Source: a virus
Reading direction: 5' to 3' (one strand)
DNA: 64,000 nucleotides
Virus record (IMG/VR): IMGVR_UViG_3300033149_003115
Location: 32,001-96,000 of that record
Shown here: piece by piece, positions 1,130-31,428 of the stretch
Position numbering within the stretch: the first letter of the stretch is position 1
Layout: each line of letters opens with the position of its first letter
Position numbers and translations under genes: made by a program
Notes under the pieces: generated by a model
Seen by the model: only the letters and a program-made list of their open reading frames with translations
Database searches by the model: none
What the model was told of the DNA's origin: nothing

Positions 1130-1369
1130 TTGAGGACCATGACATGTGCTCATTGTGGTAGGCAGTTCACTTGTAGTGGTAAATGCCAGAGGATCAGTCC
1201 CTACACATCCACTCTTTGCTCTTGTCTGGACTGTAGGATCAAGTTCTTAGTCAACTGTGAAATAGAACGATTCTCAGTCCTTCTAAAGGATATTCTAGAG
1301 ATCTATTCCACATGCTATGATCTTAGTGTAGAAGAGCTAAAGAAGAGATATATTATGTGTCTTATTTAG
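1130..1369 (+). CDS. Cys-rich Zn-binding paralog family member
   Basis: CxxCGxxFxCxxxC...CxCxxC...CY pattern. Confidence 0.8.
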   Translation: MRTMTCAHCGRQFTCSGKCQRISPYTSTLCSCLDCRIKFLVNCEIERFSVLLKDILEIYSTCYDLSVEELKKRYIMCLI

Positions 1370-1382
1370 AGGACTATATCTA

Positions 1383-1670
1383 ATGAAAGACACTAAATGC
1401 TTTAGATGTGGTAAAACATTCAAATGTACTAAAGATTGTACTCATAAACCATTCACATTCTTACCAGAGAACTCTGAACTTGAAACTGTTTGTATATGTC
1501 TAGATTGTAGAATAGAAGATTATCTTGAGCTTAGATCTAAGGCATGGGCATTACAAAGAGGTAAAACACCTTCATTTTTGGAATATAGCTTTTTTATTAA
1601 AGGATGTGTTAGCTGTTATAACATACCTGAAGAAGAAGTAAAGAAGAGGATATTGATAGACACGCTATGA
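1383..1670 (+). CDS. Cys-rich Zn-binding paralog family member
   Basis: CFRCGKTFKC...CICLDC...CY; ends ILIDTL. Confidence 0.8.
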   Translation: MKDTKCFRCGKTFKCTKDCTHKPFTFLPENSELETVCICLDCRIEDYLELRSKAWALQRGKTPSFLEYSFFIKGCVSCYNIPEEEVKKRILIDTL

Positions 1671-1679
1671 GGTAAACAC

Positions 1680-1922
1680 ATGAAGAGGATGAAGTGTGCT
1701 AGCTGTGGAATAGAATTTGAGTGTACTCGTTTTTGTAGTCACTTACTCCCCTTTAGAGAAACTTGTTTATGTCTTAAATGTCAGATACGTTTACAAAAGA
1801 ATGTAGTAGGAGAAATTCTAGAGCTATATGGAGGACTAGGAGCTGATGATGAATATATCAGACGATGCTTTAATTTAAGTAGAGAGGAGCTAAAGAAGCT
1901 AAAGGTCATAGAAACATTATAA
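1680..1922 (+). CDS. Cys-rich Zn-binding paralog family member
   Basis: CASCGIEFEC...CLCLKC...CF; ends VIETL. Confidence 0.8.
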   Translation: MKRMKCASCGIEFECTRFCSHLLPFRETCLCLKCQIRLQKNVVGEILELYGGLGADDEYIRRCFNLSREELKKLKVIETL

Positions 1923-1934
1923 ATGGGATAACAA

Positions 1935-2171
1935 ATGATATGTTGGAACTGTGGTAAATCATTTGAGTGTACTAAGTATTGTCAATCTAAGCTTGATCCA
2001 GTTGAATATTGTCTATGCATGGAATGTCAGATCAAGATATTGAACTCTCCAAAAGAAGGATATATTTTTATCCCTAGGACATATTCTCCAATAGAGGTAG
2101 AGGATATCATGAGGTGTTTCGATCTATCCAGGACTGATCTAGAGAAGCTCCAGGTGATACATCTCTTATGA
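1935..2171 (+). CDS. Cys-rich Zn-binding paralog family member
   Basis: CWNCGKSFEC...CLCMEC...CF. Confidence 0.8.
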   Translation: MICWNCGKSFECTKYCQSKLDPVEYCLCMECQIKILNSPKEGYIFIPRTYSPIEVEDIMRCFDLSRTDLEKLQVIHLL

Positions 2172-2410
2172 TCTACACTTCTCGATGTGTCAGATGTGGT
2201 AAGATCTTTAAGTGTACTAAGAGATGTACTTTGTCACCTGAGGTACCTTATGGTTGTATATGTCTGAAATGTAGGTTAGAGGAGATCAAGAAGAACATAG
2301 ATCCCTATAGGATGATAGGGAAGCTGGATAGCATACTAGACTTATACTCATCCTGCTATGATGTCCCTCTTGATACTATGAAGAAGCTCTTCTTTATCAG
2401 CTATTTGTAG
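2168..2410 (+). CDS. Cys-rich Zn-binding paralog family member
   Basis: CVRCGKIFKC...CICLKC...CY. Confidence 0.8.
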   Translation: MIYTSRCVRCGKIFKCTKRCTLSPEVPYGCICLKCRLEEIKKNIDPYRMIGKLDSILDLYSSCYDVPLDTMKKLFFISYL

Positions 2411-2419
2411 GGAATAACC

Positions 2420-2650
2420 TTGTATAAGATGAAACATGTCAACTGGGATAAGGTATTTGAATATACCAGGTTCTGTGATCCTATGATTTCTAGCTCTTAT
2501 CATCCTAGAGAAATTTTAGAAGGGAGCGTAGACAGGTGTTTGTGTTTAAGTGTCAAATCAGATATTTTAGAACCTATACTAAGGAGCTGTTTTGGTCTTT
2601 CTAAGAAAAAGTGTAAAGAGCCTATTATTGATAGAGGATTTATAGATTGA
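2420..2650 (+). pseudogene. decayed Cys-rich paralog
   Basis: N-terminal cysteines lost relative to 1680..1922; an alternative frame after the A-run near 2603-2610 reads VKSLLLIEDL-stop (TAG 2643-2645). Confidence 0.65.
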
Positions 2651-2874
2651 CTAAAGTAATCTGTGCTAGATGTGGTAAGGAGTTCAAATGTGAGGGAATA
2701 TGTCCTTCTTTCTCATTATCCCCTCAAAATAGGTGTATCTGTTTAGAATGTAGGCTAAAAAACTTCCCTTATTATAGCGATAATTTCTATTTCTTTGGTA
2801 AGGAGTACACCAAGAAATGTTTTAATCTAAGTGAAGAGGAGATCTCTAAGCTACTAATAATCTATAGTTTATAG
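2647..2874 (+). CDS. Cys-rich Zn-binding paralog family member
   Basis: CARCGKEFKC...CICLEC...CF. Confidence 0.8.
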   Translation: MTKVICARCGKEFKCEGICPSFSLSPQNRCICLECRLKNFPYYSDNFYFFGKEYTKKCFNLSEEEISKLLIIYSL

Positions 2875-2949
2875 AGTGATCATATTTGGGAGAATAAGGT
2901 TATATGTTCTCAATGATCTTTTTGATAGTATACACTTTGTGATTATATC

Positions 2950-3213
2950 ATGATAGTTAGATGTTTAGACTGTGGTAGAGTCATCAAGTGTACCAGATCA
3001 TGTCATAAGATCAAAAGTCTGAAGGGGAGAGATCTGGTATTTTGCTATTGCTCAGACTGTCTAATGAAGCAGCTAGATAAGCTTTCAAGATATTCAGATA
3101 GAAGCTCCAAGCTCTCTGAGTCTGACTTGAATGATATTCTAGACAGGTTAGAAAGATGCTTTGAGATGGACAAGAGCGAAATAGACAAGATCCTAATCCT
3201 TTATTCCTTATAG
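2950..3213 (+). CDS. Cys-rich Zn-binding paralog family member
   Basis: CLDCGRVIKC...CYCSDC...CF. Confidence 0.8.
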   Translation: MIVRCLDCGRVIKCTRSCHKIKSLKGRDLVFCYCSDCLMKQLDKLSRYSDRSSKLSESDLNDILDRLERCFEMDKSEIDKILILYSL

Positions 3214-3226
3214 CAATATTTAAGAG

Positions 3227-3448
3227 ATGAGGTGGATGAAGAAGCCTAAAGTAGTGAGGGTTAAGCCTAAGCTTAAGCTAGAGAGCTCAATGTCTGGATA
3301 CATTATCTATCTATGTGATGATCTGGGAAATGAGATATGGACTGAGCTATTTAAGGATGTGAAAGAGGCTACCACTATATACAATGTCCTCTCTGAGGTC
3401 CTGCTATCCCTTAGACTTAACTCATTTCATATCATGAGATCCACATAG
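3227..3448 (+). CDS. hypothetical protein
   Basis: ORF in operon context. Confidence 0.5.
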   Translation: MRWMKKPKVVRVKPKLKLESSMSGYIIYLCDDLGNEIWTELFKDVKEATTIYNVLSEVLLSLRLNSFHIMRST

Positions 3449-3459
3449 AGGGTTTTAGC

Positions 3460-3594
3460 TTGGATATTAAACATGTTTGTGAGTTTGAAGCATCTGGTGG
3501 ACTATGCTGGCTAAAGGGTCTTAGGGTATGTAATGAAATAGACTATACCAAGTGTAAGACACGTAAAGCTGGACTGATCGTCTGTGAGCTATAG
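3460..3594 (+). CDS. small Cys-rich protein (44 aa, not in ORF track)
   Basis: TTG start; MDIKHVCEFEASGGLCWLKGLRVCNEIDYTKCKTRKAGLIVCEL; fills the gap and carries the C-terminal tag. Confidence 0.6.
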   Translation: MDIKHVCEFEASGGLCWLKGLRVCNEIDYTKCKTRKAGLIVCEL

Positions 3595-3604
3595 GTGTTA
3601 GATC

Positions 3605-3841
3605 TTGATAAGAGTCTGCTCCAAGTGTGGTGTTGAGTTCGTGTGCAATGGAGAGTGTCCTCAATATAGAATGTTTGGTCCTTCTTGTATCTGTCTAAGA
3701 TGTAGACTAGTCTTACTCAAAACATGGAAAGAGTATTTTAATCTAGGCTATTCTTACCTGATGAGGATACTTAAAATAGAAGAGTGTTTTAACCTGGATG
3801 ATATTGAAATAAAGAAGATCTTGCTAACAGAGCTACTTTAG
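3605..3841 (+). CDS. Cys-rich Zn-binding paralog family member
   Basis: CSKCGVEFVC...CICLRC...CF; ends LLTELL. Confidence 0.8.
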   Translation: MIRVCSKCGVEFVCNGECPQYRMFGPSCICLRCRLVLLKTWKEYFNLGYSYLMRILKIEECFNLDDIEIKKILLTELL

Positions 3842-3856
3842 GAGGAAGACATTAAA

Positions 3857-4156
3857 TTGATACCTGTATGTAAGAACTGTGGAAGCTCAAATATACTGGT
3901 CAAGTGGGTACGTAAGTCAGAGAAATCAGATATTGTCTCGTTTGAGAAGTATGCTAATAAACTACTAGAGGAGAGGAAGAACACCAAGCATGATATTGGA
4001 TCTCTCTATTCATCAACCATTTCCTACCCCTTCCCATCTCTCGGATCAGTGCCTGATCCCATCACTAATTACGCTCAGCTGGTCCTGACTTGTAAGAACT
4101 GTGGATACACTATAGTGATCAACATCGATAGCTGGCTAGTGGCTAATGACATCTGA
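3857..4156 (+). CDS. zinc-ribbon protein
   Basis: Two CKNCG motifs; ends LVANDI. Confidence 0.65.
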   Translation: MIPVCKNCGSSNILVKWVRKSEKSDIVSFEKYANKLLEERKNTKHDIGSLYSSTISYPFPSLGSVPDPITNYAQLVLTCKNCGYTIVINIDSWLVANDI

Positions 4157-4385
4157 AGTAGAGACAACGAAGACAAGATGTCTAAGATGTGGTAAGGAGT
4201 TCAGATGTACCAGGCACATAGCATCCATATGTAGAGATATCTCAGCTTGTATCTGCTTTGATTGTAGTGTTCCTCTCCTCTTGGAGCAGGGGATTAGTCT
4301 TCATAGTATAATATCAAGCTGTGTAGAGTGTTATGATGTTTCACCAGAGGAGGTTAAAAAGAAGATAGTCATCTCTTCCCTTTAA
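4146..4385 (+). CDS. Cys-rich Zn-binding paralog family member
   Basis: CLRCGKEFRC...CICFDC...CY; ends IVISSL. Confidence 0.8.
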   Translation: MTSEVETTKTRCLRCGKEFRCTRHIASICRDISACICFDCSVPLLLEQGISLHSIISSCVECYDVSPEEVKKKIVISSL

Positions 4386-4396
4386 GGTGAAGTTCT

Positions 4397-5584
4397 ATGA
4401 TACCTCGTGAGATCCTTTATGATATAAGAGAGGGTATGAAGAATAAGTCATTACCAAAGGCTATCTCAATAATAGCTCAGAGACTACACTTAGGATCTGG
4501 GGATTATAAGAGATTCTCCCATTCTATCAATGGTCATAAGTGGAGAGGTATCATATATTACAAGAGAAATAGCCTACTAGGAACTATATTCTCATACTTT
4601 GATAGTAAGCCATTGGTGATCAAGGGATATCCTAAGATACGTTACTCAGAGGTATCCAGAGTTAGAGACAAGGAGTGTTATCTAGAGGCTAAGTACGATG
4701 GCACCAACCTGGGGTTCTGGATGTTCCCTGATGGTACTCTAATGGGTAAAACCAGGTTTGTAGAGCGTTATGATCGTCCAGGATACGAGGGTAGGAGATG
4801 GAGTGAGCTCATTAGTGACACTGGATACATGGATCAGATAGCCAAGCTATGTAAGGATGATTATTCCCCATTTGGTGAGCTTTATGGATACAGGAACCCA
4901 GGTGAGTTTATCAGGTACTCCACTCCCATAGACATCAAGTTCTTTGAGGTGTGTGATCTGAGGACCATGGAGTGGATAGAATACAATAGAAAAATAAAGC
5001 TACTAGAGAGCTATGGTCTCAGACCAGTGGAGCTATACTGGCATGGAGTACTATCATTAAAAGAAATAGCCAGGTTAGAATATGAAGCTAAGCAATATGT
5101 CTGCTTGGATGGTATGGAAGGGTATGTAGCAAAGTGGTATAGCTCAGAGGATAGAGAGACTTACATGGCTAAGCTCAAGTGTGATGACATCAAGGAGAGA
5201 GCATGGGGTTTATCTCCCAGATCCACCATCCCAAGATCCGTGATCTCCAAGGCTGTCAAGAAGGCTCTTGATAATAGATCCAGCTTTAGTACCTTGAAAG
5301 AGGTGGAGGACTTTGTTAGAGAGGAATTGTTGGAGGAGGCTACCAAAGAGCTGGTTAATAGAGTGGATAAGAAGATCAAGAGGATAGTGAAAGGAGCCTT
5401 TGGTAATATTGAAGATCAAAAGAAGATATGGGACTACTTTGAGGAGCTAGAGTCCATGGGTGTTTCTATTGATAATAAGAATAAGATCCTCTCTCTAGCA
5501 GCTAGTGTCTTTAAGGACATCAACCCAAGTGAGCTCTACAGAGCATATTGTGGATATCTGGCTATTAGAGAAATTAGAAGGTAA
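4397..5584 (+). CDS. ATP-dependent RNA ligase
   Basis: Motif I KYDGTN, FGELYG, motif IV EGYVAK, motif V AKLK; no OB domain apparent. Confidence 0.8.
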   Translation: MIPREILYDIREGMKNKSLPKAISIIAQRLHLGSGDYKRFSHSINGHKWRGIIYYKRNSLLGTIFSYFDSKPLVIKGYPKIRYSEVSRVRDKECYLEAKYDGTNLGFWMFPDGTLMGKTRFVERYDRPGYEGRRWSELISDTGYMDQIAKLCKDDYSPFGELYGYRNPGEFIRYSTPIDIKFFEVCDLRTMEWIEYNRKIKLLESYGLRPVELYWHGVLSLKEIARLEYEAKQYVCLDGMEGYVAKWYSSEDRETYMAKLKCDDIKERAWGLSPRSTIPRSVISKAVKKALDNRSSFSTLKEVEDFVREELLEEATKELVNRVDKKIKRIVKGAFGNIEDQKKIWDYFEELESMGVSIDNKNKILSLAASVFKDINPSELYRAYCGYLAIREIRR

Positions 5585-5589
5585 GTAGC

Positions 5590-5889
5590 TTGATACATGA
5601 AATTACTAATAGAGTGTTAAGGAAATATGATGATTGTGAAATAAAGGAGCTCACTCCTTCATGTTCTGTGATAGTATTCCCTGGGTTCAGGCTTATAATC
5701 AAAGCCACCTTTGATTATAGTGTTTACTTGGAGATATCCTTCAAATCTAATCTTAAGATATACCTCGATTGTAATCTAGAGGTCTATTCAAAAGTCCTTG
5801 AACGTAACGCTAAGATGAATGATATACTAACATTCATAGATAAAGTCAGGTCTTTTATGGAGAAGACGATCCTGGTTAACACCTTATAG
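5590..5889 (+). CDS. hypothetical protein
   Basis: ORF; ends ILVNTL. Confidence 0.6.
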   Translation: MIHEITNRVLRKYDDCEIKELTPSCSVIVFPGFRLIIKATFDYSVYLEISFKSNLKIYLDCNLEVYSKVLERNAKMNDILTFIDKVRSFMEKTILVNTL

Positions 5890-5897
5890 GGATAAAC

Positions 5898-6665
5898 ATG
5901 AGGTCTCCAGATAGAATGTTTAATCTACAATGTAGAAATAGCTACTTCCTATCTCAGATCTTGCCTGGCATGGATGTCATTACTAACACTCCAGAGACAC
6001 CCTATGAGAAGAACTCCATTATCCATAAGAATATCCTATTATATGCCACTCAGGGGAGTGGTAAGACAGAGACCATTAGATCTTTAGTAGAGGAGATAGT
6101 AAACAAGTATGGGAAGGATAATGTTAATGCAGTTATCTCTAGTGGATCTAATAGCCTAGAGGATCTAATGGTGTTTGGACTAGATAACAAGCTGATACAG
6201 GTCCAGGTAGCTGATGACTTCACTCTACAAGAAGTCCCTAAGGAAGTGATCAAAGCTTACTTCAAGATCAGACATATATGGTATAAGAGGATCAAAAGAC
6301 CTTTTGGATATATTCTAAGCATATTCTCACTACACAGATTTCACTCTGGAGCTAAAGAGATCAGGAGCACAGCTGATGCTGTGTTAATAAGAGACGATAG
6401 CCTCAACCCTTATGATCACTCAGTCATCAAGGGGTTCATAGGAGAGTATGGACTAGAGGATCTACACTTCATAGAAGAGAACAGGGATCTCCATCCTGTC
6501 CTCAAGAGCTACTCTATATTTGCCACCAGGACTAAAAGAGTTGGATTAGTATATTTCCCTCTAGCATCCAAGAATCACCTTAGAGAGATATCTCCTATCA
6601 AGAGCAAATACACTAATATTGAACAACGTAAGCTAATAAGGAACTGTCTTTACGGTGATATATGA
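5898..6665 (+). CDS. P-loop NTPase, A32/FtsK-HerA-like
   Basis: Walker A ATQGSGKT, Walker B VQVADD, downstream RH and EIRS motifs. Confidence 0.6.
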   Translation: MRSPDRMFNLQCRNSYFLSQILPGMDVITNTPETPYEKNSIIHKNILLYATQGSGKTETIRSLVEEIVNKYGKDNVNAVISSGSNSLEDLMVFGLDNKLIQVQVADDFTLQEVPKEVIKAYFKIRHIWYKRIKRPFGYILSIFSLHRFHSGAKEIRSTADAVLIRDDSLNPYDHSVIKGFIGEYGLEDLHFIEENRDLHPVLKSYSIFATRTKRVGLVYFPLASKNHLREISPIKSKYTNIEQRKLIRNCLYGDI

Positions 6666-6880
6666 TGAGCAAGGAAATAGTCAGAGTATGTAAGATATGT
6701 GGAAGGAGATGGAAGTGTGTCCCTAGACGAGTCAACAGGAGTGAGCTTTGTACTAAGGATTGTATCCAAGTCTGCTTCAGCTGCTTCACCCCTACTAATG
6801 GTCTAAAGAAAGAGGATGTTATAAACTCTAGATGTTACAAGCTAGAGGATTTCAAGTACAAGATCAGCTCCCTGATATGA
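6662..6880 (+). CDS. Cys-rich paralog (divergent)
   Basis: CKICGRRWKC...CFSC...CY. Confidence 0.65.
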   Translation: MMSKEIVRVCKICGRRWKCVPRRVNRSELCTKDCIQVCFSCFTPTNGLKKEDVINSRCYKLEDFKYKISSLI

Positions 6881-7026
6881 GGTGACATCTTTGAACTGTC
6901 CATATAGGTACAAGGTAGAAGGTGATCCCTGGAGGTATTGTGGCTATTATAAGAAGGAGAAAGTAATATGTGGATGTGAGGGGTATGAGGATGATTGTAT
7001 TATTCTAAAGAAGGAGATAGAAAAGA

Positions 7027-7602
7027 ATGACTAAAGTACTCTATCCATCATGTAGTGAGCTAGTCACTCATCTGTACATCACTGATATAGAGGAGATCAG
7101 AAAGGCTCTAAGAGAGATCACCAGGATCACTGGGTACAAGGTGGGGGTATATGCTTATGTCACAAAGTACACAGATATCCCTCTCAACTCCAGACTTGGA
7201 GTTAGTACTAGAAAGGTGTACCTGGAGGTTGACATTGGCAAGGTTCAGCTCGTGAACACCAGTTATGGAGATGTTAAACTGGGAATAGACCTGAGCTCTC
7301 TATCCTCAAGAGACAAGAGAAAGATAGGGAACAAAAAATCAGATGATCTATGGCTAGTGTTATACAACCCTAACAAGAAGGATCATCTAAGGATCACCTT
7401 ACATGATAGCTACTGCTCAGCCTATGGACTAACCTTTGAATGTGAGCAGCATTGTTGCACTCTTAATTACCCAGCATTTGCAAAGATAATACAACACTTT
7501 GGATCTATTTATCATGCTCATGATGGAGGTAGCCCTTATGAGTTTGAAGACTGGTGTAAGAGGAATGATCTGGATGATGTCTTGGAACATGGATCCTATT
7601 AG
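7027..7602 (+). CDS. hypothetical protein
   Basis: 191 aa ORF. Confidence 0.6.
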   Translation: MTKVLYPSCSELVTHLYITDIEEIRKALREITRITGYKVGVYAYVTKYTDIPLNSRLGVSTRKVYLEVDIGKVQLVNTSYGDVKLGIDLSSLSSRDKRKIGNKKSDDLWLVLYNPNKKDHLRITLHDSYCSAYGLTFECEQHCCTLNYPAFAKIIQHFGSIYHAHDGGSPYEFEDWCKRNDLDDVLEHGSY

Positions 7603-7746
7603 AGGAATATTTAATGAGTGATCTAGTAGATTTCATAGTATGGTTGAAGAAGAAAGAGAACAAGGAGATATCATCCTCTCTAGTAAGAAGTATAGGATAT
7701 TATGTGTATAGATTCCTAGAGGAACAATATAAGGAGAAAGATCAGA

Positions 7747-8046
7747 GTGTCAAAGACAGGACAGCTAATTGAGATATCCAATATCTTAGTTAGAAAGAAA
7801 GGATTTACTATAAGATCTTTGAACCGTGAGGAGTCTAAGTTAAAATATAAAACCATAGATCTAAGGATCACCTGTGAGTACTCAGGGCTTAGCTTGGAAA
7901 TGGAAATGGGCTCCAAGATAGCTAATAATAACAAAACCATTCTATCCCTTACATGTTCTAGTATATTTGGTGTGGTTAAGGTTCTTGAATGGGTAGATGA
8001 AGCTCTTAGAATACTAACCAAGGTAGCTGTTATAGATGAGCTTTAG
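7747..8046 (+). CDS. hypothetical protein (start uncertain)
   Basis: Ends VAVIDEL; a short ORF from ATG 7614 overlaps in another frame. Confidence 0.55.
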   Translation: MSKTGQLIEISNILVRKKGFTIRSLNREESKLKYKTIDLRITCEYSGLSLEMEMGSKIANNNKTILSLTCSSIFGVVKVLEWVDEALRILTKVAVIDEL

Positions 8047-8055
8047 GGAATTACC

Positions 8056-8328
8056 TTGATCTGTATAAGCTGTGGTAAAGAGTTCAATTGTGACTCTAAA
8101 TATAGACTACATTGTACATTCTACGAGACAGGCGAGTGTTATTGTCCTTCTTGCGATATTGAGCTCCATTATTCTGAAAGCAATATATCGAGCTTAGAAC
8201 CTAGAGAGGTAGATATCCTCTTTGAACAATATGTCCTACATCATGTTAGGTGTTATGGGTCTAAGAGTCTTATCAAATATTCAGATAAAATATTACATCT
8301 TTATTTTAAAGGGAGGAATAATGTTTAA
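8056..8328 (+). CDS. Cys-rich Zn-binding paralog family member
   Basis: CISCGKEFNC...CYCPSC...CY; lacks the C-terminal tag. Confidence 0.75.
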   Translation: MICISCGKEFNCDSKYRLHCTFYETGECYCPSCDIELHYSESNISSLEPREVDILFEQYVLHHVRCYGSKSLIKYSDKILHLYFKGRNNV

Positions 8329-8557
8329 ACATCTTTGCTTAGAATGTAACAAAGAGTTCCAATGTACTGGAGAAGGATGTACATCTTATTTTCCTTATAT
8401 CTCAACATGTCCTTGTTACAAATGTTTTCTGGAGATTAACAAGAGCTTGATATTAAATCCTGACTTAGCTGGATTTGTTAGAGAACAGTTTATTCTATGT
8501 TATGGTGAGTCTAAAGTACATTATTTTGATAGATATTTAGTACGGGAGACCTTGTAA
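8321..8557 (+). CDS. Cys-rich Zn-binding paralog family member
   Basis: Start moved to the ATG after GGAGG; CLECNKEFQC...CPCYKC...CY; ends LVRETL. Confidence 0.75.
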   Translation: MFKHLCLECNKEFQCTGEGCTSYFPYISTCPCYKCFLEINKSLILNPDLAGFVREQFILCYGESKVHYFDRYLVRETL

Positions 8558-9366
8558 TGTATCCTAAAGTATTATCTTTACATTGTACTAATCAATGTAA
8601 TCTAAGATGTAGATTCTGTTATATACCCAAAAATAAGAGATCTAAACCATTGAATTGGTTCTTGGATATTCCATCTGTAGCTAGAGACATAGGGATAGAA
8701 CAGATAGCCATAGGTGGAGGGGAGGTGACCTTATTCCCCAAGTTCCTAACCAAGCTAGCTAAGAGGTGTGTAGAGAATGATATTATACCCAACCTCACCA
8801 CCAATGGGATCAAGTTCGATCCATCCAAAATAGATACCAGCTTGTTTGGAGTGATATCCTTTAGCTTGGACTCTTACAAGATGTCTCATCTAAGCTATCA
8901 CCATCTGAGACGTATCATATCTAGTATCCAGAAATATCCTGACAGAGATCATAAGCCTAAAATCGGGATTAACTATTTACTCCTTAACAAGAGATCTCTA
9001 TACCAGCTTCCTCTGGTGATCAGATCTCTTGATGATATTGTGGACAGCTGGTACATCTTACATCTTAAATATCACCCAGTGGACTATAAGAGGAAAGACC
9101 TTGAGGGTGTCCTATACCTTCTTTCCCCTTTCCTTAGAGACAAACTACTGGTGGATGATTCTATTCAGGTCATCCTGGGTAAGAAGGAGATCTGTAATAG
9201 AGGTAGAGATCTGGTTAGTATAGATCCAAGTGGAAATGTCAAACCCTGCTCTTTTGACTCTTCCATAGGTTACTTGAATGATCCTAGAGATCTTAAAGAC
9301 ATAGTAAACATGTACTATCCTATGATGTTTGATGATAATAGGTGTCCTTATATTGTCTACAAATAG
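8557..9366 (+). CDS. radical SAM protein with SPASM/twitch-like C-terminus
   Basis: CNLRCRFC, GGGE, TTNG, GNVKPC. Confidence 0.9.
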   Translation: MYPKVLSLHCTNQCNLRCRFCYIPKNKRSKPLNWFLDIPSVARDIGIEQIAIGGGEVTLFPKFLTKLAKRCVENDIIPNLTTNGIKFDPSKIDTSLFGVISFSLDSYKMSHLSYHHLRRIISSIQKYPDRDHKPKIGINYLLLNKRSLYQLPLVIRSLDDIVDSWYILHLKYHPVDYKRKDLEGVLYLLSPFLRDKLLVDDSIQVILGKKEICNRGRDLVSIDPSGNVKPCSFDSSIGYLNDPRDLKDIVNMYYPMMFDDNRCPYIVYK

Positions 9367-9457
9367 ATCAAGATTCATATCAGGTGACTATAGTGGGACA
9401 TCCTCCCACTATTGTAAATATGCCCAATGGTTAGAGTGCTCTTAGAGAGAATGTCTG

Positions 9458-9646
9458 ATGTCTAAAATACTGGAGATAGGAGACAAATGTCCTGATCATA
9501 TCCGTGTATCATGTATCCCAGGATGCTATTGCTGTAAATGTAATCTCCATGAGAGGGTGTGTATTCATTGTCCTTGGGAGATCATATCAAGGTTCCCTCA
9601 TGAGTTCTCTAAGATAGCCAGGCTAAAGCTAATAAATGAGCTATAA
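9458..9646 (+). CDS. small Cys-rich protein
   Basis: CYCCKC motif; ends KLINEL. Confidence 0.55.
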   Translation: MSKILEIGDKCPDHIRVSCIPGCYCCKCNLHERVCIHCPWEIISRFPHEFSKIARLKLINEL

Positions 9647-9775: not shown

Positions 9776-10255
9776 ATGGAGAAGAACAAGATGAGACTCT
9801 CATTAGATGATTTTGTATTCTATTTCTGCTCTATTGCTCTGTTGATAACAACCACTGTTATCATCCCACTCTCTGTATTCACAACTCAATACACCATCAC
9901 AACCATAGAATACTACGAGATATACAGGGTAACATGTCCATTTGGAGTATGGCATATATCTAGTGAAGGTACAGCTCTTTTCTTTTTAACCTCTTTTAGT
10001 ATTGATATGAGGGAGTCTTATGTGATCAAGTATTTTGATGAGAACAGACACCTCAAGACATCTATCCTTGATTCTAGAGAAGCTGATATAGTCATAGACG
10101 GAACTTTCAGATTAGAGAGGGTAACTACAACTCAATATTATAACCTTCTATTTTTATTCCCTGATATCCTAACACACGAGGTTAAGTGGATCATCCATTT
10201 ACCTTACTTACCTAAAGTTAATAACACCATGACTGAGGATTGGATATATCCATAA
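9776..10255 (+). CDS. membrane-anchored hypothetical protein
   Basis: N-terminal hydrophobic segment; TATA-like CTTAAATA about 30 nt upstream. Confidence 0.6.
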   Translation: MEKNKMRLSLDDFVFYFCSIALLITTTVIIPLSVFTTQYTITTIEYYEIYRVTCPFGVWHISSEGTALFFLTSFSIDMRESYVIKYFDENRHLKTSILDSREADIVIDGTFRLERVTTTQYYNLLFLFPDILTHEVKWIIHLPYLPKVNNTMTEDWIYP

Positions 10256-10322
10256 ATATTTAGAATATGAGGAGGAGTAGAACCTGAATAGAGAAGATAA
10301 GAAAATAGACAATATCCTCTTA

Positions 10323-11069
10323 GTGAAGACTAAGAAGCTAAGACCACACCCTATAAACCTGGACATATACTCAGATCAAGAAGATCTGGCTCTGGACGAG
10401 GACATCAAAAGATCTGGTATTAGAGAGCCTCTGATTATTAATAGCAAATACGAGATCCTCAATGGAGTGAGGAGGTTCAATAGAGCTCTTAAGTATGGTA
10501 TTGAAGAGGTCCCAGCTATTGTGAAAGACTACCAGGATGAGGAACTAGCAATAGTGATGGGTAACAAGTATAGACAAAAGACACCCAGGGAGATCTATTT
10601 AGAATCTAAGATCCTGGAGAAGAGGTTTAAGGATACTGTCAAGGTTGGAAGACCCCCTAGGGGAGAGGACTATGAAAGAGGGAAGACACTAGCTGACAAA
10701 GTATCTAATGAGCTGGGGATATCCAGAGGTAAGCTATACCAAATAAAGAAAGTGTATGACAATCAAGAGAAAATACCAAAGATAGTGGAAGCTCTGGAAA
10801 ATGGCACCATATCTGTGAGCAAAGCAGCTCAAGCTGCTACCCTGGTCCTTGAGGATGGGTTACCAGAAACTAAGGTACTAAGGAAAGCTCTCAAGTCAGA
10901 TATCACAATGCCTATACCCAAGAAATCATCCAGAGGAAAGGCTAGGAAGAGAGACTACATAGTCAAGTGTCCAGTGTGTAATGCTGTGATCATAGCTGAT
11001 AAGAAGGTTAACCTCAAGACCATTGAGCAAGCTAGGATAGAAAGTAGGTTAAAGAAGAGAGGTAGCTGA
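10323..11069 (+). CDS. ParB/Sulfiredoxin N-terminal domain protein with HTH and Zn ribbon
   Basis: LRPHPIN...GIREPLII...ILNGVRR; ELGISR; CPVC. Confidence 0.8.
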   Translation: MKTKKLRPHPINLDIYSDQEDLALDEDIKRSGIREPLIINSKYEILNGVRRFNRALKYGIEEVPAIVKDYQDEELAIVMGNKYRQKTPREIYLESKILEKRFKDTVKVGRPPRGEDYERGKTLADKVSNELGISRGKLYQIKKVYDNQEKIPKIVEALENGTISVSKAAQAATLVLEDGLPETKVLRKALKSDITMPIPKKSSRGKARKRDYIVKCPVCNAVIIADKKVNLKTIEQARIESRLKKRGS

Positions 11070-14492: not shown

Positions 14493-14757
14493 CAAAGAAG
14501 AATTTGTGAAACGATTTGGAGAACCAGTAAATTTTCCACATGATGAATGGCAAATAATAGAAGTAACTGGAGAAGAGATTTATGAATGGGTAACTGATCT
14601 AGGCATTGTTCTTGTTGATGAGGCTGAGCTACTCCAGAAACTAGTGAATACCAGTGTAATGCAGAAAAAGACTCAAGATGTTGAGGAAAGAATGTATTGG
14701 CAAGGACAATCCGATATTCTGAAAAGGATTCTTGGAGAGGAGGTTGGTAAGGGTTGA
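14464..14757 (+). CDS. hypothetical protein
   Basis: Overlap-coupled ORF. Confidence 0.55.
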   Translation: MRRLLKMRISKEEFVKRFGEPVNFPHDEWQIIEVTGEEIYEWVTDLGIVLVDEAELLQKLVNTSVMQKKTQDVEERMYWQGQSDILKRILGEEVGKG

Positions 14758-15113
14758 GCTTGGAGAGCAAAGCAAAAACACTTAATGAGATCTATGGTAA
14801 AGCTGTTGAGCTGTACGGTGAGCGTTATAGTAAGCTAATTTCGAGTAAAGAGCTTGATGAGAAATTAAACACTAAGTGGATTAGGCTTGAAGATTGCCAA
14901 AAAACGGTTAGTGCTTATGAAGAGCAAGTGTTTAAGCTTGCAGTTGAAAAAGCTGAGTTGAAGAAGTGTCTCGAAAAGCTGCCACAGACCATAGACGATG
15001 TTGCGAAGAGGATCCGACAGAAACTGGACTTGACTCGCTCTAGTGGGGTGGCTGTTTTTGATGTGGCTGTTTCCATGTTGAAAGACGAGTTAAACAAGGA
15101 GACAAAACCATGA
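14754..15113 (+). CDS. coiled-coil protein, paralog of 13915..14229
   Basis: Shared KAKxL...LNTKWI. Confidence 0.6.
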   Translation: MSLESKAKTLNEIYGKAVELYGERYSKLISSKELDEKLNTKWIRLEDCQKTVSAYEEQVFKLAVEKAELKKCLEKLPQTIDDVAKRIRQKLDLTRSSGVAVFDVAVSMLKDELNKETKP

Positions 15114-15139
15114 GAATTAGCTGGTAATCTATCCTTATA

Positions 15140-15805
15140 ATGATTACACTCCAGTTCTCCAGCTCTCAAGATAAGAAGGGATCTCTGATGGAGAGTGTGT
15201 GTCCCAGATGTGGTAAACCATTTAATGACTATTTACACTTGAAGTCTAAAGAGGATATCTATCTATGTAACACATGTGGGTTATTCTACTATAAAGATAA
15301 CAAGTGGAACATGGTGAAGTACCCTTGTCCAAAGTGTAAATCCAACTATAAGGAACCTTACAAGACAGAGGGTACATGGGTGTATTGTAAATGTGAAATA
15401 CATGGTGAGTGGAAAGTATCCTTCCTCAGATCCTTCAAGTTTAGGAGACTATGTAGCATAGCTGCTAGTAAGCCTAACAAAGACTCCAGGTATTATACCC
15501 CACCAGAGGTCAGAGCTAAGAAAATACTTGATAGTATGGGACTAAGGGAGAACATCGATTATTATCATAACAAGAGGATCAGGGTGGGGAAGGGGAGATA
15601 CTATTATCCAGACTTTATAGTATTTGATAAGATAGTGTTTGGGGTAGATCCCTCCATATGGCATACCATGTGGAATAGAGACGATAATGCCAAGATCACT
15701 TATCTAAAGAAGCTAGGGTATGAGTATGTCTCACTATCAGACAAGAATGAGAGAGAGTGGGAGAGGATCATTTCTAGATCCTTGAAGTCTCTAAGGGATG
15801 AGTGA
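15140..15805 (+). CDS. Zn-ribbon + Vsr/DUF559-like PD-(D/E)xK endonuclease
   Basis: CxxC pairs, then TPPE...YYPDF...WH...LKKLGY. Confidence 0.65.
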   Translation: MITLQFSSSQDKKGSLMESVCPRCGKPFNDYLHLKSKEDIYLCNTCGLFYYKDNKWNMVKYPCPKCKSNYKEPYKTEGTWVYCKCEIHGEWKVSFLRSFKFRRLCSIAASKPNKDSRYYTPPEVRAKKILDSMGLRENIDYYHNKRIRVGKGRYYYPDFIVFDKIVFGVDPSIWHTMWNRDDNAKITYLKKLGYEYVSLSDKNEREWERIISRSLKSLRDE

Positions 15806-15814
15806 TGAAATAAC

Positions 15815-16045
15815 ATGAAGAGATGGGTGTTAGTTAAGACATTCCAGCTGGTTGTTGAGGATGTTGAGATATGTGGCTCTTTCCAGGAAGCTAAGGATCG
15901 GTTTGAGGTGTACACTGGGATGAGCTATGATAAATGCCAGATGTGGAAGACAAGTGATAAGTATGATAGCATGTGGGATTATGATCAATCCAAGATATTT
16001 GAGATAGATGTAGAAGATAGAGCCACTTTAGCTGATAGAAGATGA
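15815..16045 (+). CDS. hypothetical protein
   Basis: ORF in operon. Confidence 0.5.
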   Translation: MKRWVLVKTFQLVVEDVEICGSFQEAKDRFEVYTGMSYDKCQMWKTSDKYDSMWDYDQSKIFEIDVEDRATLADRR

Positions 16046-16076
16046 GATGGAGAAGTGAAAATCAGGAGATCCTAGA

Positions 16077-16331
16077 ATGAAAGGTGAGAATGGTAAGCAG
16101 GTTGATGTGGTTGTCGTAGGTACTGATAATCTTAGAGATTATCTAAGCCCAGAATGGATACGAGATTGTGTCATGTTCGATAGGAAACATAGCTCTCTGG
16201 TGATCTCTCCTCAGAGATGCCTAGAACACAGGGTCTCAGCTATAGACATAGCCCAGGATAAGTTTGCTTCTAGAACCATACTTCATTTCCGACTAGACTA
16301 TGATTTTAAAAGGGTTAAGAAGTCCTCTTGA
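16077..16331 (+). CDS. hypothetical protein
   Basis: ORF in operon. Confidence 0.5.
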   Translation: MKGENGKQVDVVVVGTDNLRDYLSPEWIRDCVMFDRKHSSLVISPQRCLEHRVSAIDIAQDKFASRTILHFRLDYDFKRVKKSS

Positions 16332-16381
16332 TAGAGGGACATTGGGATACTTGAGAGATTACAAAGACTGGAGAGATCAAG

Positions 16382-16738
16382 ATGACTATGAGCCACCTTG
16401 CTGAGATGATCATCCAGTTTTACGATGATCCTGGCTCTTTCCATGACTGGCTTGAGATAATGCATAATGCAGGGGTGATCCAGAGCATAGAGATTGATGG
16501 TGACATAATAAGGATACATGGTCAGGTCAGCACATGTCTATGGAGGAAAGTTGATCCAGTCAACAACCTGGTGTGTCTAGCCCTTGCTCTCTTTGGTCCT
16601 TTCTGGGTATTCATGAGCGATAAAGACATTGCTTTTAAGAAAGTGAAACAATGGTGGAGAAGCCAGATCAAGAGGACATCCTCTGTAAAGAAGTCTAAGA
16701 AGCAGAGGACCTTGGAGAACTGGAGCAATACTTCTTAA
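16382..16738 (+). CDS. hypothetical protein with C-terminal PIP-box-like motif
   Basis: KKQRTLENW. Confidence 0.55.
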   Translation: MTMSHLAEMIIQFYDDPGSFHDWLEIMHNAGVIQSIEIDGDIIRIHGQVSTCLWRKVDPVNNLVCLALALFGPFWVFMSDKDIAFKKVKQWWRSQIKRTSSVKKSKKQRTLENWSNTS

Positions 16739-16858
16739 ATATAGAGATCAATCTTCAGATGTCCTCATCTGCTTAGTGTCTCTCCTAGAACATTTTGAAT
16801 ATCAAGAGATTATAGATCAAGATGTGAGTAATCATCGTAAAAGGAGGTATGAGGTGAA

Positions 16859-18232
16859 TTGAGTAGCTATGACTGGGATGAAGATGATTGGGAAGAGGAT
16901 GACTGGGAAGAGGTAGAGGAGATAAGGGTAGAAAAACCAGCTAAGAGGTTATCCTCTTCTAAGGTAGAAATAGTCAAGGATATAGTGCGTGAGCTCAAGG
17001 CTCTGCTAAAGGAGCTAAACCAGAAAGATAAAGACTATGATGAGCACTTAGGTGAAGATAGGACCAATAGAAGAGAGATCACCAGATCTTATCCTAGGTA
17101 TAGGCGTAGAGAGGCTTGCTATGCTATATCCAAGTTCTTAGAGGAGGAGGTGAAGCTAAAGAAGCTGTGTGACTACGCCAGTGGTGAGTACTCTCCAGTC
17201 TCTTACTTCTCACTGGAGATCAAGAGAGGAGAGCTAAAGTCATTACCTTCAGAGGGTACTGCGTATATTTATTACAAGGATAAACCCTTTATCGTCAGCC
17301 TAGACCTGGAGTATAAAGATCCCTGGATCAGTATAGTCTGTAGAAATGAGGACGATAGCTTAGCTGAGGAGATATTCAAGAGAATAGATGAGATGATGAA
17401 CACTCTCTCTTTTCTAAAAGGGGAGAAGCTAGAGCTAACATATGGGGTGGACTTTGAGTTCTTAGATTATCCTAAGAGAACATGGGATGATATAGTGTTG
17501 TCTCCTAAAACTAAGAGAGAGATACTACTCAACATTATTTACCCCATTGAGAACAGAGACATATTACTAAAGAATAGACTACCTTGGAAGAGAGGGATAT
17601 TACTAGAGGGGTTCCCTGGTACTGGTAAGACATTGCTAGGGAAGATATTATGTAATGAGCTAAAAGATATCACCTTTATACTGGTCTCATCCAAGAGCAT
17701 TGGTAACAAATCCCACATTAGCTTACTATTCAAGGCAGCTAGGATATTAGCTCCTACTCTGCTCTTCTTTGAGGATATAGACCTATTTGGTAGGGATAGG
17801 GAGAGAGGAGACACTCTATTCCTGGGTGAGCTATTGAACCAGCTGGATGGTATTAGGGATAACGAAGGGGTGTTTGTGGTAGCTACAACCAATAGACCCA
17901 GCCTACTGGATAAAGCACTTCTACACAGACCATCCAGGTTTGATGTTAAGATAAGGTTTGAGCTACCCAGTTCTTCTGAGAGACTGAGCCTGGTGAACCT
18001 GTATTCTAAAGGGGTCAAGATGTCTAAAGAGATAAGGAGCTTAATAGCGTCCAGGACTGAGGGATTCACTCCTGCCATGATCAAGGAGGTCATAGTGTAT
18101 TCCAGGTTATTGTCTCTGTTCAAGGGATCAACACTGAGAGATGACATAGTGAAATCCTCCATATCCATCCTCAAGGAGAGCATGAGAATGAACAGGGAGA
18201 GATATCAAGATCAAAAAGGACTAATAGTATGA
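16859..18232 (+). CDS. classical AAA+ ATPase (single ATPase domain)
   Basis: GILLEGFPGTGKT, FFEDID, TTNRPSLLDKALLHRPSRFD. Confidence 0.9.
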   Translation: MSSYDWDEDDWEEDDWEEVEEIRVEKPAKRLSSSKVEIVKDIVRELKALLKELNQKDKDYDEHLGEDRTNRREITRSYPRYRRREACYAISKFLEEEVKLKKLCDYASGEYSPVSYFSLEIKRGELKSLPSEGTAYIYYKDKPFIVSLDLEYKDPWISIVCRNEDDSLAEEIFKRIDEMMNTLSFLKGEKLELTYGVDFEFLDYPKRTWDDIVLSPKTKREILLNIIYPIENRDILLKNRLPWKRGILLEGFPGTGKTLLGKILCNELKDITFILVSSKSIGNKSHISLLFKAARILAPTLLFFEDIDLFGRDRERGDTLFLGELLNQLDGIRDNEGVFVVATTNRPSLLDKALLHRPSRFDVKIRFELPSSSERLSLVNLYSKGVKMSKEIRSLIASRTEGFTPAMIKEVIVYSRLLSLFKGSTLRDDIVKSSISILKESMRMNRERYQDQKGLIV

Positions 18233-18313
18233 GATAATGAGGTGCAGACTTGATGTTATATGTTAATAAATTAGAAGATAGAGAGATCACCTACAAAGGA
18301 AGAGAGGAAAGAG

Positions 18314-18559
18314 ATGAGTAGGCTATACAGGGATCCAGATCTATATAGAAAGATATGGAGCTTGTACAGGGTGATTAAGGAGGATATCAAGCTACTAAGC
18401 ATGGTCTCTGATGACTCTAGGGAAGCTCTTAGGATTAAGATATTAAAAGAGCTGGATGAGCTATGGAGTCTTATTAGACCTATACTGGAAGAACTGTTGT
18501 TACCTGACCCTAGGAGATTATTCCCTAGAGATATTCTGGATAGATCTTCTCTCCTATAG
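18314..18559 (+). CDS. hypothetical protein
   Basis: ORF with purine-rich RBS. Confidence 0.5.
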   Translation: MSRLYRDPDLYRKIWSLYRVIKEDIKLLSMVSDDSREALRIKILKELDELWSLIRPILEELLLPDPRRLFPRDILDRSSLL

Positions 18560-18593
18560 CTCCTTATCTTTTATTTATTACAAGCTTAGGTGA

Positions 18594-19187
18594 ATGTATA
18601 TGAGAAACTTATATTGTAACGAGATAGAACGCAATAAATGGAGAGCAACCAGAGACTTTGTTAAAAAGTACTTGAGCAGAGATAGTGTAGTACTAGACAC
18701 ATTTGCTGGTGTAGGTTTTATAACTGAAATATACGCCTCTCATGTAAAGAGAGTAGTAGCCATAGAAGTAGATAATGAAGTATTTAAGTCTCTAAAAGAG
18801 CATCTAGTTCCTTACTCTAATATTCAGTACTACAATGAGAATAGTGAAGTTCTAATATCTAGGGGTTTAAATGACAAGTTTGATGTTATAGATTTTGATC
18901 CTTGGGGATGTGCAGACAAGCTAATAGTGAAAAGCTTAAACCTATTAAAAGAACACTCCTATCTGGCTATCACTAACTGTGATCCCTTTGTTATCTCTAG
19001 ATTCAAGTGTACTATTAAGAAATATGGAGAGCCATATATTAATGATTGGAGAGGGTACTCTAAGCGTTATTATGATCAGTTTATATCTCCTGTGCTAGAG
19101 AACAATGGGTTAGAGTCCAAGCTCATCAGTCATATGGACACATCTAATATTTGTAGAATAATAGTGGAAACAAATAGGTTATCATGA
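18594..19187 (+). CDS. class I SAM-dependent methyltransferase, Trm1-like motif
   Basis: VLDTFAGVG; FDVIDFDPWG. Confidence 0.75.
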   Translation: MYMRNLYCNEIERNKWRATRDFVKKYLSRDSVVLDTFAGVGFITEIYASHVKRVVAIEVDNEVFKSLKEHLVPYSNIQYYNENSEVLISRGLNDKFDVIDFDPWGCADKLIVKSLNLLKEHSYLAITNCDPFVISRFKCTIKKYGEPYINDWRGYSKRYYDQFISPVLENNGLESKLISHMDTSNICRIIVETNRLS

Positions 19188-19471
19188 GATGATAAAATGG
19201 TGAGTAAACCATATTATCTAGCTCATCATATTAACAACAGGAGTATAATAGGAACAACAGACTGATGGTGTAATGTATAATCATATGAGAATAGTGGGAG
19301 GATATCCCACTAAGATCTAGTATATGGAAATACCTCTTTGTTAGAAGAGCGTCATGGATAAGGATGATTAAATAAGGTGATCCATTGTCTCTTTCATACT
19401 GAGATCTAACTGATAAGGTTGTATCTTTATATTATCCAAATTTATGATCAATGGTAAAGGAATGATGTATT

Positions 19472-20899: not shown

Positions 20900-21175
20900 A
20901 TGAATGTCTTGAAGGATAAACTATATCGAGAATATCTGAAAATAAAAGAGGCTCGTGTAGAGCTGAATGACCTGCTATCCCAATGGGAGCACCTATCTCT
21001 AGCCTTTGGCTCAAATGAGAGCTCAGTTAAAAGACTAGAGGATCAGATCAATAATATCTACAAGGAGTTCCCATATCTCTCATCCAAAGCTGATACTCTC
21101 AATATACAGTTTCCATTGATCCTTAGGTTTATTAAGTACATGGACAAGAGGATTGGAATACTTGAAGATCTATAG
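20900..21175 (+). CDS. helical hypothetical protein
   Basis: AGGTGA RBS; ends GILEDL. Confidence 0.6.
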   Translation: MNVLKDKLYREYLKIKEARVELNDLLSQWEHLSLAFGSNESSVKRLEDQINNIYKEFPYLSSKADTLNIQFPLILRFIKYMDKRIGILEDL

Positions 21176-24368: not shown

Positions 24369-24821
24369 TTGGACTGGTCTTATATAGCTGGGTTTATAGA
24401 TGGTGAAGGCAATATTGGATTGATGAAAAGACGAGGCACTAAAAGAATAGAACCTTATTTGAAGATGGTGAACTCAAATAGAGAAGTTCTTGAAGAAATC
24501 GAGAAATTCATAGGAGCTGGTGTTGTGAGGTTAAATAACAAAGGTAGCTTTAAAAAGAACTGGAGGAAAACTTATGTTCTTGTGTTCAACTCTAGAGATA
24601 ATATTAGGACTATCTTAAAAAATTGTATAAATGATTTAATAGTAAAACAGAGACAAGCTGAGCTCATGTTAGAGTTCATTAAAATTAGAGATCTCAAATG
24701 TAGATCAGGTTCCCCCTTAAAAGGGAGATCAAGAGGTTCTTCAAGCTTTGATGAAGAATTAAAAATATATGAAGAGATGAAAAAGTTAAACTTTCAACGA
24801 GGTAAGGCACATTATAAATAG
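24369..24821 (+). mobile_element. free-standing single-motif LAGLIDADG homing endonuclease
   Basis: YIAGFIDGEG; LIVKQRQA; locally AT-rich. Confidence 0.9.
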
Positions 24822-31426: not shown

Positions 31427-31428
31427 AC

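Follow-up and report, generated by a model that had tools for sequence, protein, structure and literature searches.

What a virus gains from a long run of small proteins that share their cysteines and little else is the question raised by a 64,000-nucleotide stretch of DNA (the window) from the uncultured virus IMGVR_UViG_3300033149_003115. The viral genome is complete, 113,897 bp long and bounded by direct terminal repeats, and the window covers bases 32001-96000 of the record; coordinates below are those of the window unless stated otherwise. In a preliminary description based on the letters alone, about 12 such genes at 1130-9646 had been read as a gene-accordion family of two-zinc modules with diversified binding surfaces and a constant C-terminal handle, like an adaptor library against host defence proteins. 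The computational analysis reported here shows that this eight-cysteine family is real, unnamed, virus-restricted and unusually expanded in one archaeal-type virus.

To define the membership, a profile hidden Markov model (HMM) was built from the copies and run against all 545 open reading frames (ORFs) of at least 40 aa of the whole virus. Seventeen ORFs were matched at E values of 1.5e-10 to 4.7e-20, and the ORF at 6662-6880 was matched at 4.4e-05. The virus carries 18 intact copies and one degenerate copy, 12 of the intact copies and the degenerate one lying inside the window. The intact members between 1130 and 9646 start at 1130, 1383, 1680, 1935, 2168, 2647, 2950, 3605, 4146, 6662, 8056 and 8321, and six further ones are located upstream of the window, at genome positions 14537, 16878, 17114, 17439, 17688 and 19524 (within 14537-19805). 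The initial count of at least 11 intact genes plus one decayed copy was slightly conservative, as 12 intact genes and the decayed copy at 2420-2650 fall in that range. The closing ORF of that range, at 9458-9646 (+), is not a member (HMM E 7.1 in one run and absent from the matches at E <= 0.1 in another; hhalign probability 0.4% against the family) and belongs to a separate family, called C here. All copies are found in a dense cluster of small genes that lies upstream of the replication module, in an operon-like array with spacers of 9-13 nt or overlaps of 4 nt. The encoded proteins are 67-107 aa long, and of the virus's genes, which number roughly 199, about 9% belong to the family.

The scaffold of repeated cysteine motifs was recovered by the ORF list, the alignments and the profile HMM alike. 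Alignment of 50 family members from the virus and from metagenomes gave the pattern C-x2-C-x5-C-x(3-31, mostly 3-8)-C-x(3-16, mostly 5-11)-C-x-C-x2-C-x(18-38)-C (cysteines C1 to C8), with exactly eight cysteines in 39 of the 50 members. A CxxCG motif occurs once in 39/50 and is missing in 11/50. Among the 18 copies of the virus, mean pairwise identity was 0.38 from C1 to C7, 0.13 from C7 to C8 and 0.31 from C8 to the end. When the shared cysteines were left out, the C1-C7 value fell to 0.18, in agreement with the variable core and the little identity between cysteines that had been described.

No characterised family matches, and the scores in Pfam, PHROG, NCBIfam and Foldseek all stayed below threshold; for the first three, no model reached its cut-off for any family member. 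The weak Pfam matches of the 50 members, listed at E <= 10, were mostly zinc modules, namely Cys_rich_CWC in 6/50 (best E 0.026), FYVE in 3/50 (best 0.0019), a treble-clef domain in 3/50, MYND in 1/50 (2.2e-4) and RING in 1/50. Cys_rich_CWC (PF14375), a putative metal-binding domain of unknown function, is the commonest of these, and model positions 1-44 of 50 align to the member at 4146-4385. The best match scored 14.5 bits (E 0.006) and the second 10 bits against a gathering cut-off of 24, and sub-threshold matches to the same model were also obtained in 7/14 control genomes. Two CWC clusters appeared at a template modelling (TM) score of 0.42 in a structure search of the ESM Atlas. The studied family differs in having no Trp between C5 and C6 in all 49 of the 49 members in which the motif was located, and the CWC domain has neither the helical half nor the tail. 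From sequence, a relation of the two may exist, at most distant and below cut-off. The FYVE, MYND, RING and treble-clef matches, together with the weak Foldseek rows given below, are all that links the family to the cross-brace or treble-clef two-zinc modules (RING, PHD, FYVE, MYND).

Four further classes were compared and set aside. The C2H2 zinc finger (PF00096 and relatives) has the ligand set C-x2-4-C-x12-H-x3-5-H, and in the family the His pair is replaced by Cys at +5 and about +9; none of the C2H2 Pfam models passed E <= 0.01 on the family, and a profile search of PDB sequences matched only the C2H2 CxxCGKxF knuckle (best E 0.0028, 21 residues). Precursors of ribosomally synthesised and post-translationally modified peptides (RiPPs) of the ranthipeptide/SCIFF type were rejected since no NCBIfam precursor model was matched among the 18 members, and a radical SAM gene adjoins only 2/18 copies, an adjacency not seen in the related virus fragment L013. 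FxSxx-COOH-type vWA-MoxR substrates have a different C-terminal motif, and a zincin gene stands beside family-like genes only in L013. The haloarchaeal one-domain C(P)XCG zinc-finger micro-proteins (PMC6562870, PMC10716476, PMC11241148) are the closest comparison by protein type. According to these papers, they are likewise very small, from the archaeal world, provided with a CxxCG-type knuckle, numerous per genome and mostly of unknown function; the members of the present family differ by 0 or 1 CxxCG, by their eight cysteines, by their size (67-107 aa) and by a C-terminal half that is helical. The family is assigned to none of the systems compared, whose defining features were absent from it where tested. 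Literature searches on archaeal viruses, vents, Cys-rich proteins and anti-CRISPRs, at the level of titles and abstracts, yielded no description of such a family.

The distribution of the family was analysed by an exhaustive profile search of 1.84 billion representative proteins, which returned 50 proteins at E <= 1e-3, 8 of them at <= 1e-10. Among 38 homologues examined, 3 were from the virus itself or near-identical, and about 35-38 were non-self, small and unnamed proteins sharing the scaffold; one metagenomic protein, P0010, is a fused double copy of 161 aa, and P0024 and P0050 are encoded on contigs of 74.6 kb and 122 kb. A word-indexed protein search gave 4 matches among 363 candidates, being the virus's own proteins and one identical fragment. 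Viral contigs were also searched with the phrog_30528 neighbour, the capsid protein, P0016, the zincin alignment and P0024; no relative was detected by these queries, the sole match being the unrelated high-GC contig L012. No complete relative of the virus was found in these scans, so copy number is not comparable between genomes. Two related fragments carry family members. L013 (13.7 kb) encodes a MoxR, a zincin/VWA protein 47% identical to that of the studied virus, a homologue of the protein at 7027-7602 and a radical SAM enzyme, besides about four members of the family; at L013 1895-7302, three tandem family-like genes and several other small genes stand between MoxR and zincin/VWA. L017 (6.5 kb) encodes MoxR, zincin/VWA, a homologue of the P-loop protein at 5898-6665 and two tandem family members. 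L017 was binned in a metagenome-assembled genome titled Candidatus Woesearchaeota (DPANN-type archaeon), which offers a weak lead to the host.

To judge whether the array is expanding, DNA repeats, phylogeny, selection and read data were considered. Direct DNA repeats between copies were 60-79% identical and confined to the Cys motifs, with no near-identical copies among them. A maximum-likelihood tree of the 50 members was star-like, with 30/47 inner branches unresolved and a median end branch of 1.5 changes per site, and only two sister pairs were supported, both adjacent (1680/1935, and genome 16878/17114). This sequence tree would fit a single origin of the virus's own copies as well as several. 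The ratio of nonsynonymous to synonymous substitution rates (dN/dS) was calculated by the Nei-Gojobori method for orthologues in four strains of a related virus (L013-L016), the virus's own paralogs (20-40% protein identity) being saturated at synonymous sites. Family orthologues gave 0.05-0.44, neighbouring genes on the same contigs 0.07-0.31 (zincin 0.07), and an out-of-frame overlapping ORF, used as the control, 0.94-0.98. The few replacements in orthologues were not concentrated in the variable core, which in the P0057-type orthologue holds 2 of about 7-8. The contigs in the read data were 151-542 bases long and of low depth, and none spans two copies, which makes them uninformative on copy number. 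They showed five single-base differences in family genes (1 synonymous and 4 not, one of the latter in the degenerate copy), too few to interpret, and one low-depth 32-nt skip, also in the degenerate copy and unreliable. As judged from sequence comparison, the family is coding, functional and conserved over short time spans, and its diversity is old; the copies are old paralogs kept individually, not a currently expanding array.

These results bear directly on the accordion idea, in which the genes would form an anti-defence adaptor library in an active arms race, with copy number varying by strain and positive selection on the core. The multi-copy location in the early block, the core identity of 0.13 and the lack of a housekeeping homologue suit it, and the fused P0010 together with the tandem copies in relatives points to recurring duplication. 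AcrID1 gives it a precedent among archaeal viruses; that protein is not known to be a Cys-rich metal protein. The repeats of 60-79% identity, the star-like tree with its two sister pairs, the dN/dS values like those of neighbouring genes and the distribution of replacements argue against the accordion, and the 32-nt skip lends it nothing reliable. No defence or anti-defence model was matched in general library scans, which included no dedicated anti-defence library. The gene-accordion claim and the expected selection on the core are therefore not upheld, and an active arms race of this kind is decidedly improbable. The AcrID1 clusters of Sulfolobus rudiviruses (PMC11065993) are the closest comparison by genome organisation, and the likeness is organisational only. 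According to that paper, 26/35 AcrID1 homologues lie close together in four rudiviruses, which was read as duplication and diversification; as in the present virus, these are small, fast-diverging archaeal-virus proteins with many clustered paralogs per genome, among small early or accessory genes. Two differences are seen: an anti-CRISPR function is demonstrated for AcrID1 and would be hypothetical for the eight-Cys family, and the eight-Cys array is operon-like (9-13-nt spacers, 4-nt overlaps) rather than made of single genes with their own promoters.

The fold was predicted with AlphaFold for two paralogs 24% identical to each other. The models reached a predicted local distance difference test (pLDDT) value of 84.7 with a predicted TM score (pTM) of 0.72, and a pLDDT of 87.7 with a pTM of 0.76. 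Both show hairpin strands at residues 2-6 and 12-15 that bear C1-C3, followed by three main helices, the first starting at C6/C7, the second ending at C8 and the third being C-terminal and ending in the tail. The predicted fold is thus a CxxCG zinc-knuckle hairpin packed on three helices. Foldseek searches against PDB (both models) and BFVD (the first model) gave no match at E <= 0.001, the weak top rows including HOIP RING1 and PHD and ZZ fingers at E 2-7, and nothing at 0.9 or above was found in the ESM Atlas structure search. A missing structural match does not prove a new fold, as small metal-held folds are hard to match.

The eight cysteines most likely hold two structural zinc ions, as two Zn(Cys)4 sites. 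We infer this from the geometry of the knuckle and the helix start, from the replacement of C7 by His in P0045 and by Asp in P0048 (metagenomic homologues; both residues can bind metal), and from a 69-aa tagged mini-protein at 31764-31973. This mini-protein (HMM E 9e-04) has only four cysteines, the equivalents of C1, C2, C6 and C7; it may be a one-site relative of the eight-Cys family and fits two separable sites. In the assignment that suits these data, C1/C2 and C6/C7 would form a treble-clef-like site, and C3/C4/C5/C8 a second site tying in the helix before the tail. The scaffold is consistent with the two metal sites proposed in the preliminary description, the sites themselves being deduced.

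Two other readings start from the same structural features. The eight conserved cysteines could belong to small iron-sulfur proteins serving as electron carriers or cluster donors for radical SAM enzymes and the anaerobic ribonucleotide reductase, as the viral genes include those for NrdD, for its activase and for another five radical SAM proteins, two members lie directly upstream of the radical SAM gene at 8557-9366, and one member weakly matches LdpA_Fe-S-bd (E 0.012, 1/50). Ferredoxins have the pattern CxxCxxCxxxCP, to which the spacing found here does not conform; the combination of a CxxCG knuckle hairpin and, behind it, a CxCxxC that opens a helix is characteristic of zinc sites, an electron carrier is not expected as 18 diverged copies with a hypervariable middle, and the radical SAM adjacency is not kept in L013. 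An iron-sulfur role is very unlikely.

The second reading takes the knuckle and the helical half, a tri-helical bundle resembling a helix-turn-helix (HTH), as those of sequence-specific DNA- or RNA-binding regulators, 18 small repressors or activators timing viral or host genes. The N-terminal 38 residues are net basic (+2 to +7) in 13/18 of the virus's own copies, and many weak structural neighbours are tri-helical DNA binders (C.Esp1396I, homeodomains, TrpR, DosR, a BEN domain and AlpA; Z 2.5-4.0 or Foldseek E about 3). Small one-domain archaeal zinc-finger proteins are described as regulators in PMC2253796 (Brz) and PMC6562870. The structural matches are all below the chance level for small helical models, the best Z values in a VIA-align comparison with 48,161 chains being only 3.2 and 4.7. 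Several members are acidic overall, and the position of a recognition helix, where a variable polar helix would be expected, is taken by the conserved hydrophobic tail helix. Inspection of the array for a recurring DNA motif of operator type showed none, its sole repeats being coding ones. Regulators of this kind are unlikely, if less so than the arms-race accordion.

The C-terminal end was analysed by scoring the pattern [LIVMF][LIVMFAT]xx[LI]-COOH on our own gene call. The tail was found on 14/17 family genes, on 32/104 other + strand genes at 11-67 kb (binomial P 3e-28) and on 1/78 remaining genes, and its chance frequency at internal positions was 2.1%. The consensus is hydrophobic-hydrophobic-x-[DE/polar]-x-[L/I]-COOH. 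For the final residue every one of the nine Leu/Ile codons is used, and after it every one of the three stop codons, indicating a constraint on the protein rather than a DNA signal. Unrelated carriers include a 195-aa phrog_30528 protein at 540-1127, membrane proteins and the Cys-rich families B and C; a homologue of the 540-1127 protein in another virus matches only its residues 3-163. Non-family carriers in the window are found, for example, at 540-1127, 5590-5889, 7747-8046, 20900-21175, 28171-28386, 31390-31767 and 34773-34952. Four tandem paralogous membrane proteins of 104-188 aa at L009 5957-7500 end in ..LSLDL, ..VRDSL, ..VVNEI and ..IANEI, so that the tail also occurs on predicted membrane proteins. 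A similar tail was observed on unrelated L013 proteins and on 16/32 metagenomic homologues. The constant C-terminal handle of the preliminary description thus exists as a conserved end (identity 0.31 after C8) and is not family-specific: the tail is a virus-wide label carried by the family, not a family property.

A conserved C-terminal peptide could mark substrates for processing, with the cysteines cross-linked by radical SAM/SPASM enzymes (RiPP-like) or the C-terminal peptide cut by the zincin-VWA/MoxR pair. The virus encodes a MoxR-like ATPase at genome 21207-22442 and, at genome 22432-23718, a DUF2201 zincin/VWA protein (DUF2201_N, E 5.6e-38) with an intact HExxH, their genes overlapping directly, and this pairing is kept in the virus, L013 and L017, with the three family-like genes of L013 standing in between; SPASM-type radical SAM genes are present as well. 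The vWA-MoxR ternary systems (PMC7159879) are the closest comparison in logic, with variable small proteins, a conserved C-terminal peptide, and zincin and MoxR in the genome. According to that paper, the substrates are small fast-diverging proteins with a conserved C-terminal peptide that is cut by the zincin and may be an FxSxx, an RxD, an acidic or an FtsH-associated one, and they are encoded next to the zincin gene. The viral tail motif differs and is unlike the FxSxx, RxD and acidic types listed there. The genes here belong to a virus, those of the paper to cellular conflict systems; the majority of tagged genes stand apart from the zincin gene, and cleavage would here be hypothetical. 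The confident compact folds are unlike unstructured precursor peptides, the search for SCIFF-type or other precursor models in NCBIfam was negative for the 18 members, as given above, and most copies are distant from both the zincin and the radical SAM genes. Processing of either sort is highly improbable.

The reading that we tentatively favour, and consider quite possible, is that the proteins are zinc-stabilised binding modules with copy-specific surfaces, addressed through the virus-wide C-terminal label. Small eight-Cys modules stabilised by zinc would act as binders, and the target of each copy, a protein or a nucleic acid, would be set by its divergent C7-C8 segment. The amphipathic helix at the C-terminus would end in the label, which is also on about a third of the other early-block proteins, and the label would hand all tagged proteins to one common putative reader. 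A classic-clade AAA ATPase at 16859-18232 (PF00004, E 8.6e-25) is a candidate for reading or unfolding the tagged proteins; its 240-residue N-terminal region, which starts with an acidic Trp-rich stretch, is of no known family. Complex prediction of the zincin/VWA protein with a family member gave a score of 0.00 and a mark of 0.32 and was counted neither way.

Several observations weigh against these binding modules. L017 has family members and yet no [L/I]-COOH tail among its proteins, which makes the family independent of the label. The C-terminal helix is confidently packed in both models (pLDDT 92-95), so the tail hydrophobics may be part of the core, not an exposed label, within the family. 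All structural statements come from predicted models, from which binding of metal, partner or nucleic acid can only be proposed. An iron-sulfur cluster could also be bound by this cysteine pattern, and the setting is of an anoxic type, the virus encoding six radical SAM proteins as well as a ribonucleotide reductase of the anaerobic kind. Net charge varies from -6 to +12 among members, with no uniform ligand class apparent, and purifying selection without recent duplicates fits any conserved function and not binding specifically.

A wider form of the binding-module reading is more speculative. The 18 copies, families B and C (7 and 3 members) and some twenty further tagged proteins would together be a virus-encoded mini-binder library, in which each binder grips a different host or viral target and one C-terminal address leads to a single viral machine; this joint proposal is a long shot. 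Candidates for the machine are the AAA ATPase at 16859-18232 and the MoxR-zincin/VWA pair. If true, it would mean modular adaptor-based remodelling or destruction of many targets at once. To our knowledge, nothing like such an adaptor library has been described for archaeal viruses.

The individual members in the window are all encoded on the + strand. The 79-aa protein at 1130-1369 (HMM E 8.6e-19) has two extra cysteines besides the eight of the scaffold and the tail ..YIMCLI, and the 95-aa protein at 1383-1670 (2.5e-18) has an insertion between C4 and C5 and the tail ..ILIDTL. The 80-aa protein at 1680-1922 (2.8e-19), which was modelled first (pLDDT 84.7), is the sister of the 78-aa protein at 1935-2171 (1.6e-18) with support of 99/98; the latter gene overlaps the next copy, at 2168-2410 (80 aa, 4.7e-20), by 4 nt. 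The degenerate copy at 2420-2650 is a 76-aa open frame (E 0.021-0.028) in which C1/C2/C3/C7 have become H/W/Y/V and the tail is lost, with C4, C5, C6 and C8 kept. It is followed by a 75-aa member at 2647-2874 (3.5e-19) and, after a 75-nt gap, by an 87-aa member at 2950-3213 (2.8e-17), whose identical protein is encoded on a 618-bp metagenome contig. The members at 3605-3841 (78 aa, 3.6e-17) and 4146-4385 (79 aa, 6.3e-19) come next; C4 is shifted in the latter, which is also the source of the 14.5-bit Cys_rich_CWC match. The 72-aa protein at 6662-6880 is divergent (BLASTP 27-32% identity) and encoded upstream of the 7027-7602 gene, and the equivalent position in L013 also holds a member (10047-10376). 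The 90-aa protein at 8056-8328 (2.1e-14) ends in ..KGRNNV, without the usual tail. The last member, at 8321-8557, is a 78-aa protein read from an internal ATG of ORF 8222-8557 (E 2.9e-14 for the ORF), directly upstream of the radical SAM gene. Unrelated genes inside 1130-9646 encode an RNA ligase (4397-5584), the P-loop protein (5898-6665) and the radical SAM enzyme (8557-9366).

Two other families of Cys-rich tagged proteins were observed in the virus, and neither has profile similarity to the studied family (hhalign probability 0.4% each). Family C consists of the protein at 9458-9646 and those at L009 976-1143 and 1143-1346, both upstream of the window; the three are 47% identical and share a conserved C[IV]HCP...F..EF. 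Family B comprises seven aligned members in which nine cysteines are invariant, two of them adjacent (CC); these members are located at L009 193-417, 11715-12446 (four in tandem) and 19542-19751, and at L010 11764-11979.

Pfam scans of the larger proteins identified tailed-virus genes (terminase, tail tube and two HK97-type capsid paralogs) and genes of archaeal type for replication and repair (family B DNA polymerase, a RadA/Rad51-type recombinase with E 2e-37, ERCC4 nuclease, ATP-dependent DNA ligase, and the anaerobic ribonucleotide reductase NrdD with its activase). The activase is one of the six radical SAM proteins, some of them SPASM-type. The two paralogous capsid-like genes at 53903-54967 (-) and 55603-56679 (-) both match Phage_capsid_4, one of them at 26.6 bits, just below the 27-bit cut-off, and the other at 29.6 bits, just above it. 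A 678-aa protein of the structural block at 57203-59239 (-) has C2H2 zinc-finger Pfam matches (E 6e-09), an uncommon finding in viruses of prokaryotes. A LAGLIDADG homing endonuclease gene is located at 24369-24821, and a KaiC-like ATPase is encoded at genome 13351-14334. A comparison of terminases with those of named phages gave no close one, the three records matched being 21-24% identical. Four public DNA runs containing parts of the stretch (word shares 0.33 to 0.07) are labelled as hydrothermal vent metagenome, and no RNA run with the stretch was found in the same look-up.

A large part of the genes of archaeal viruses codes for small Cys-rich proteins, and nearly all of this part lacks an explanation. 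For these genes, the present family offers an internal comparison set of 18 diverged copies, one dead copy, a reduced 4-Cys form and orthologues in related strains. The arms-race reading is corrected in that, on the evidence, the copies date far back and are conserved. The predicted fold, which is confident, consistent and without a recognisable relative, gives a practical entry to what such mini-proteins bind, and the tagged family members are natural carriers for finding the reader of the virus-wide label.

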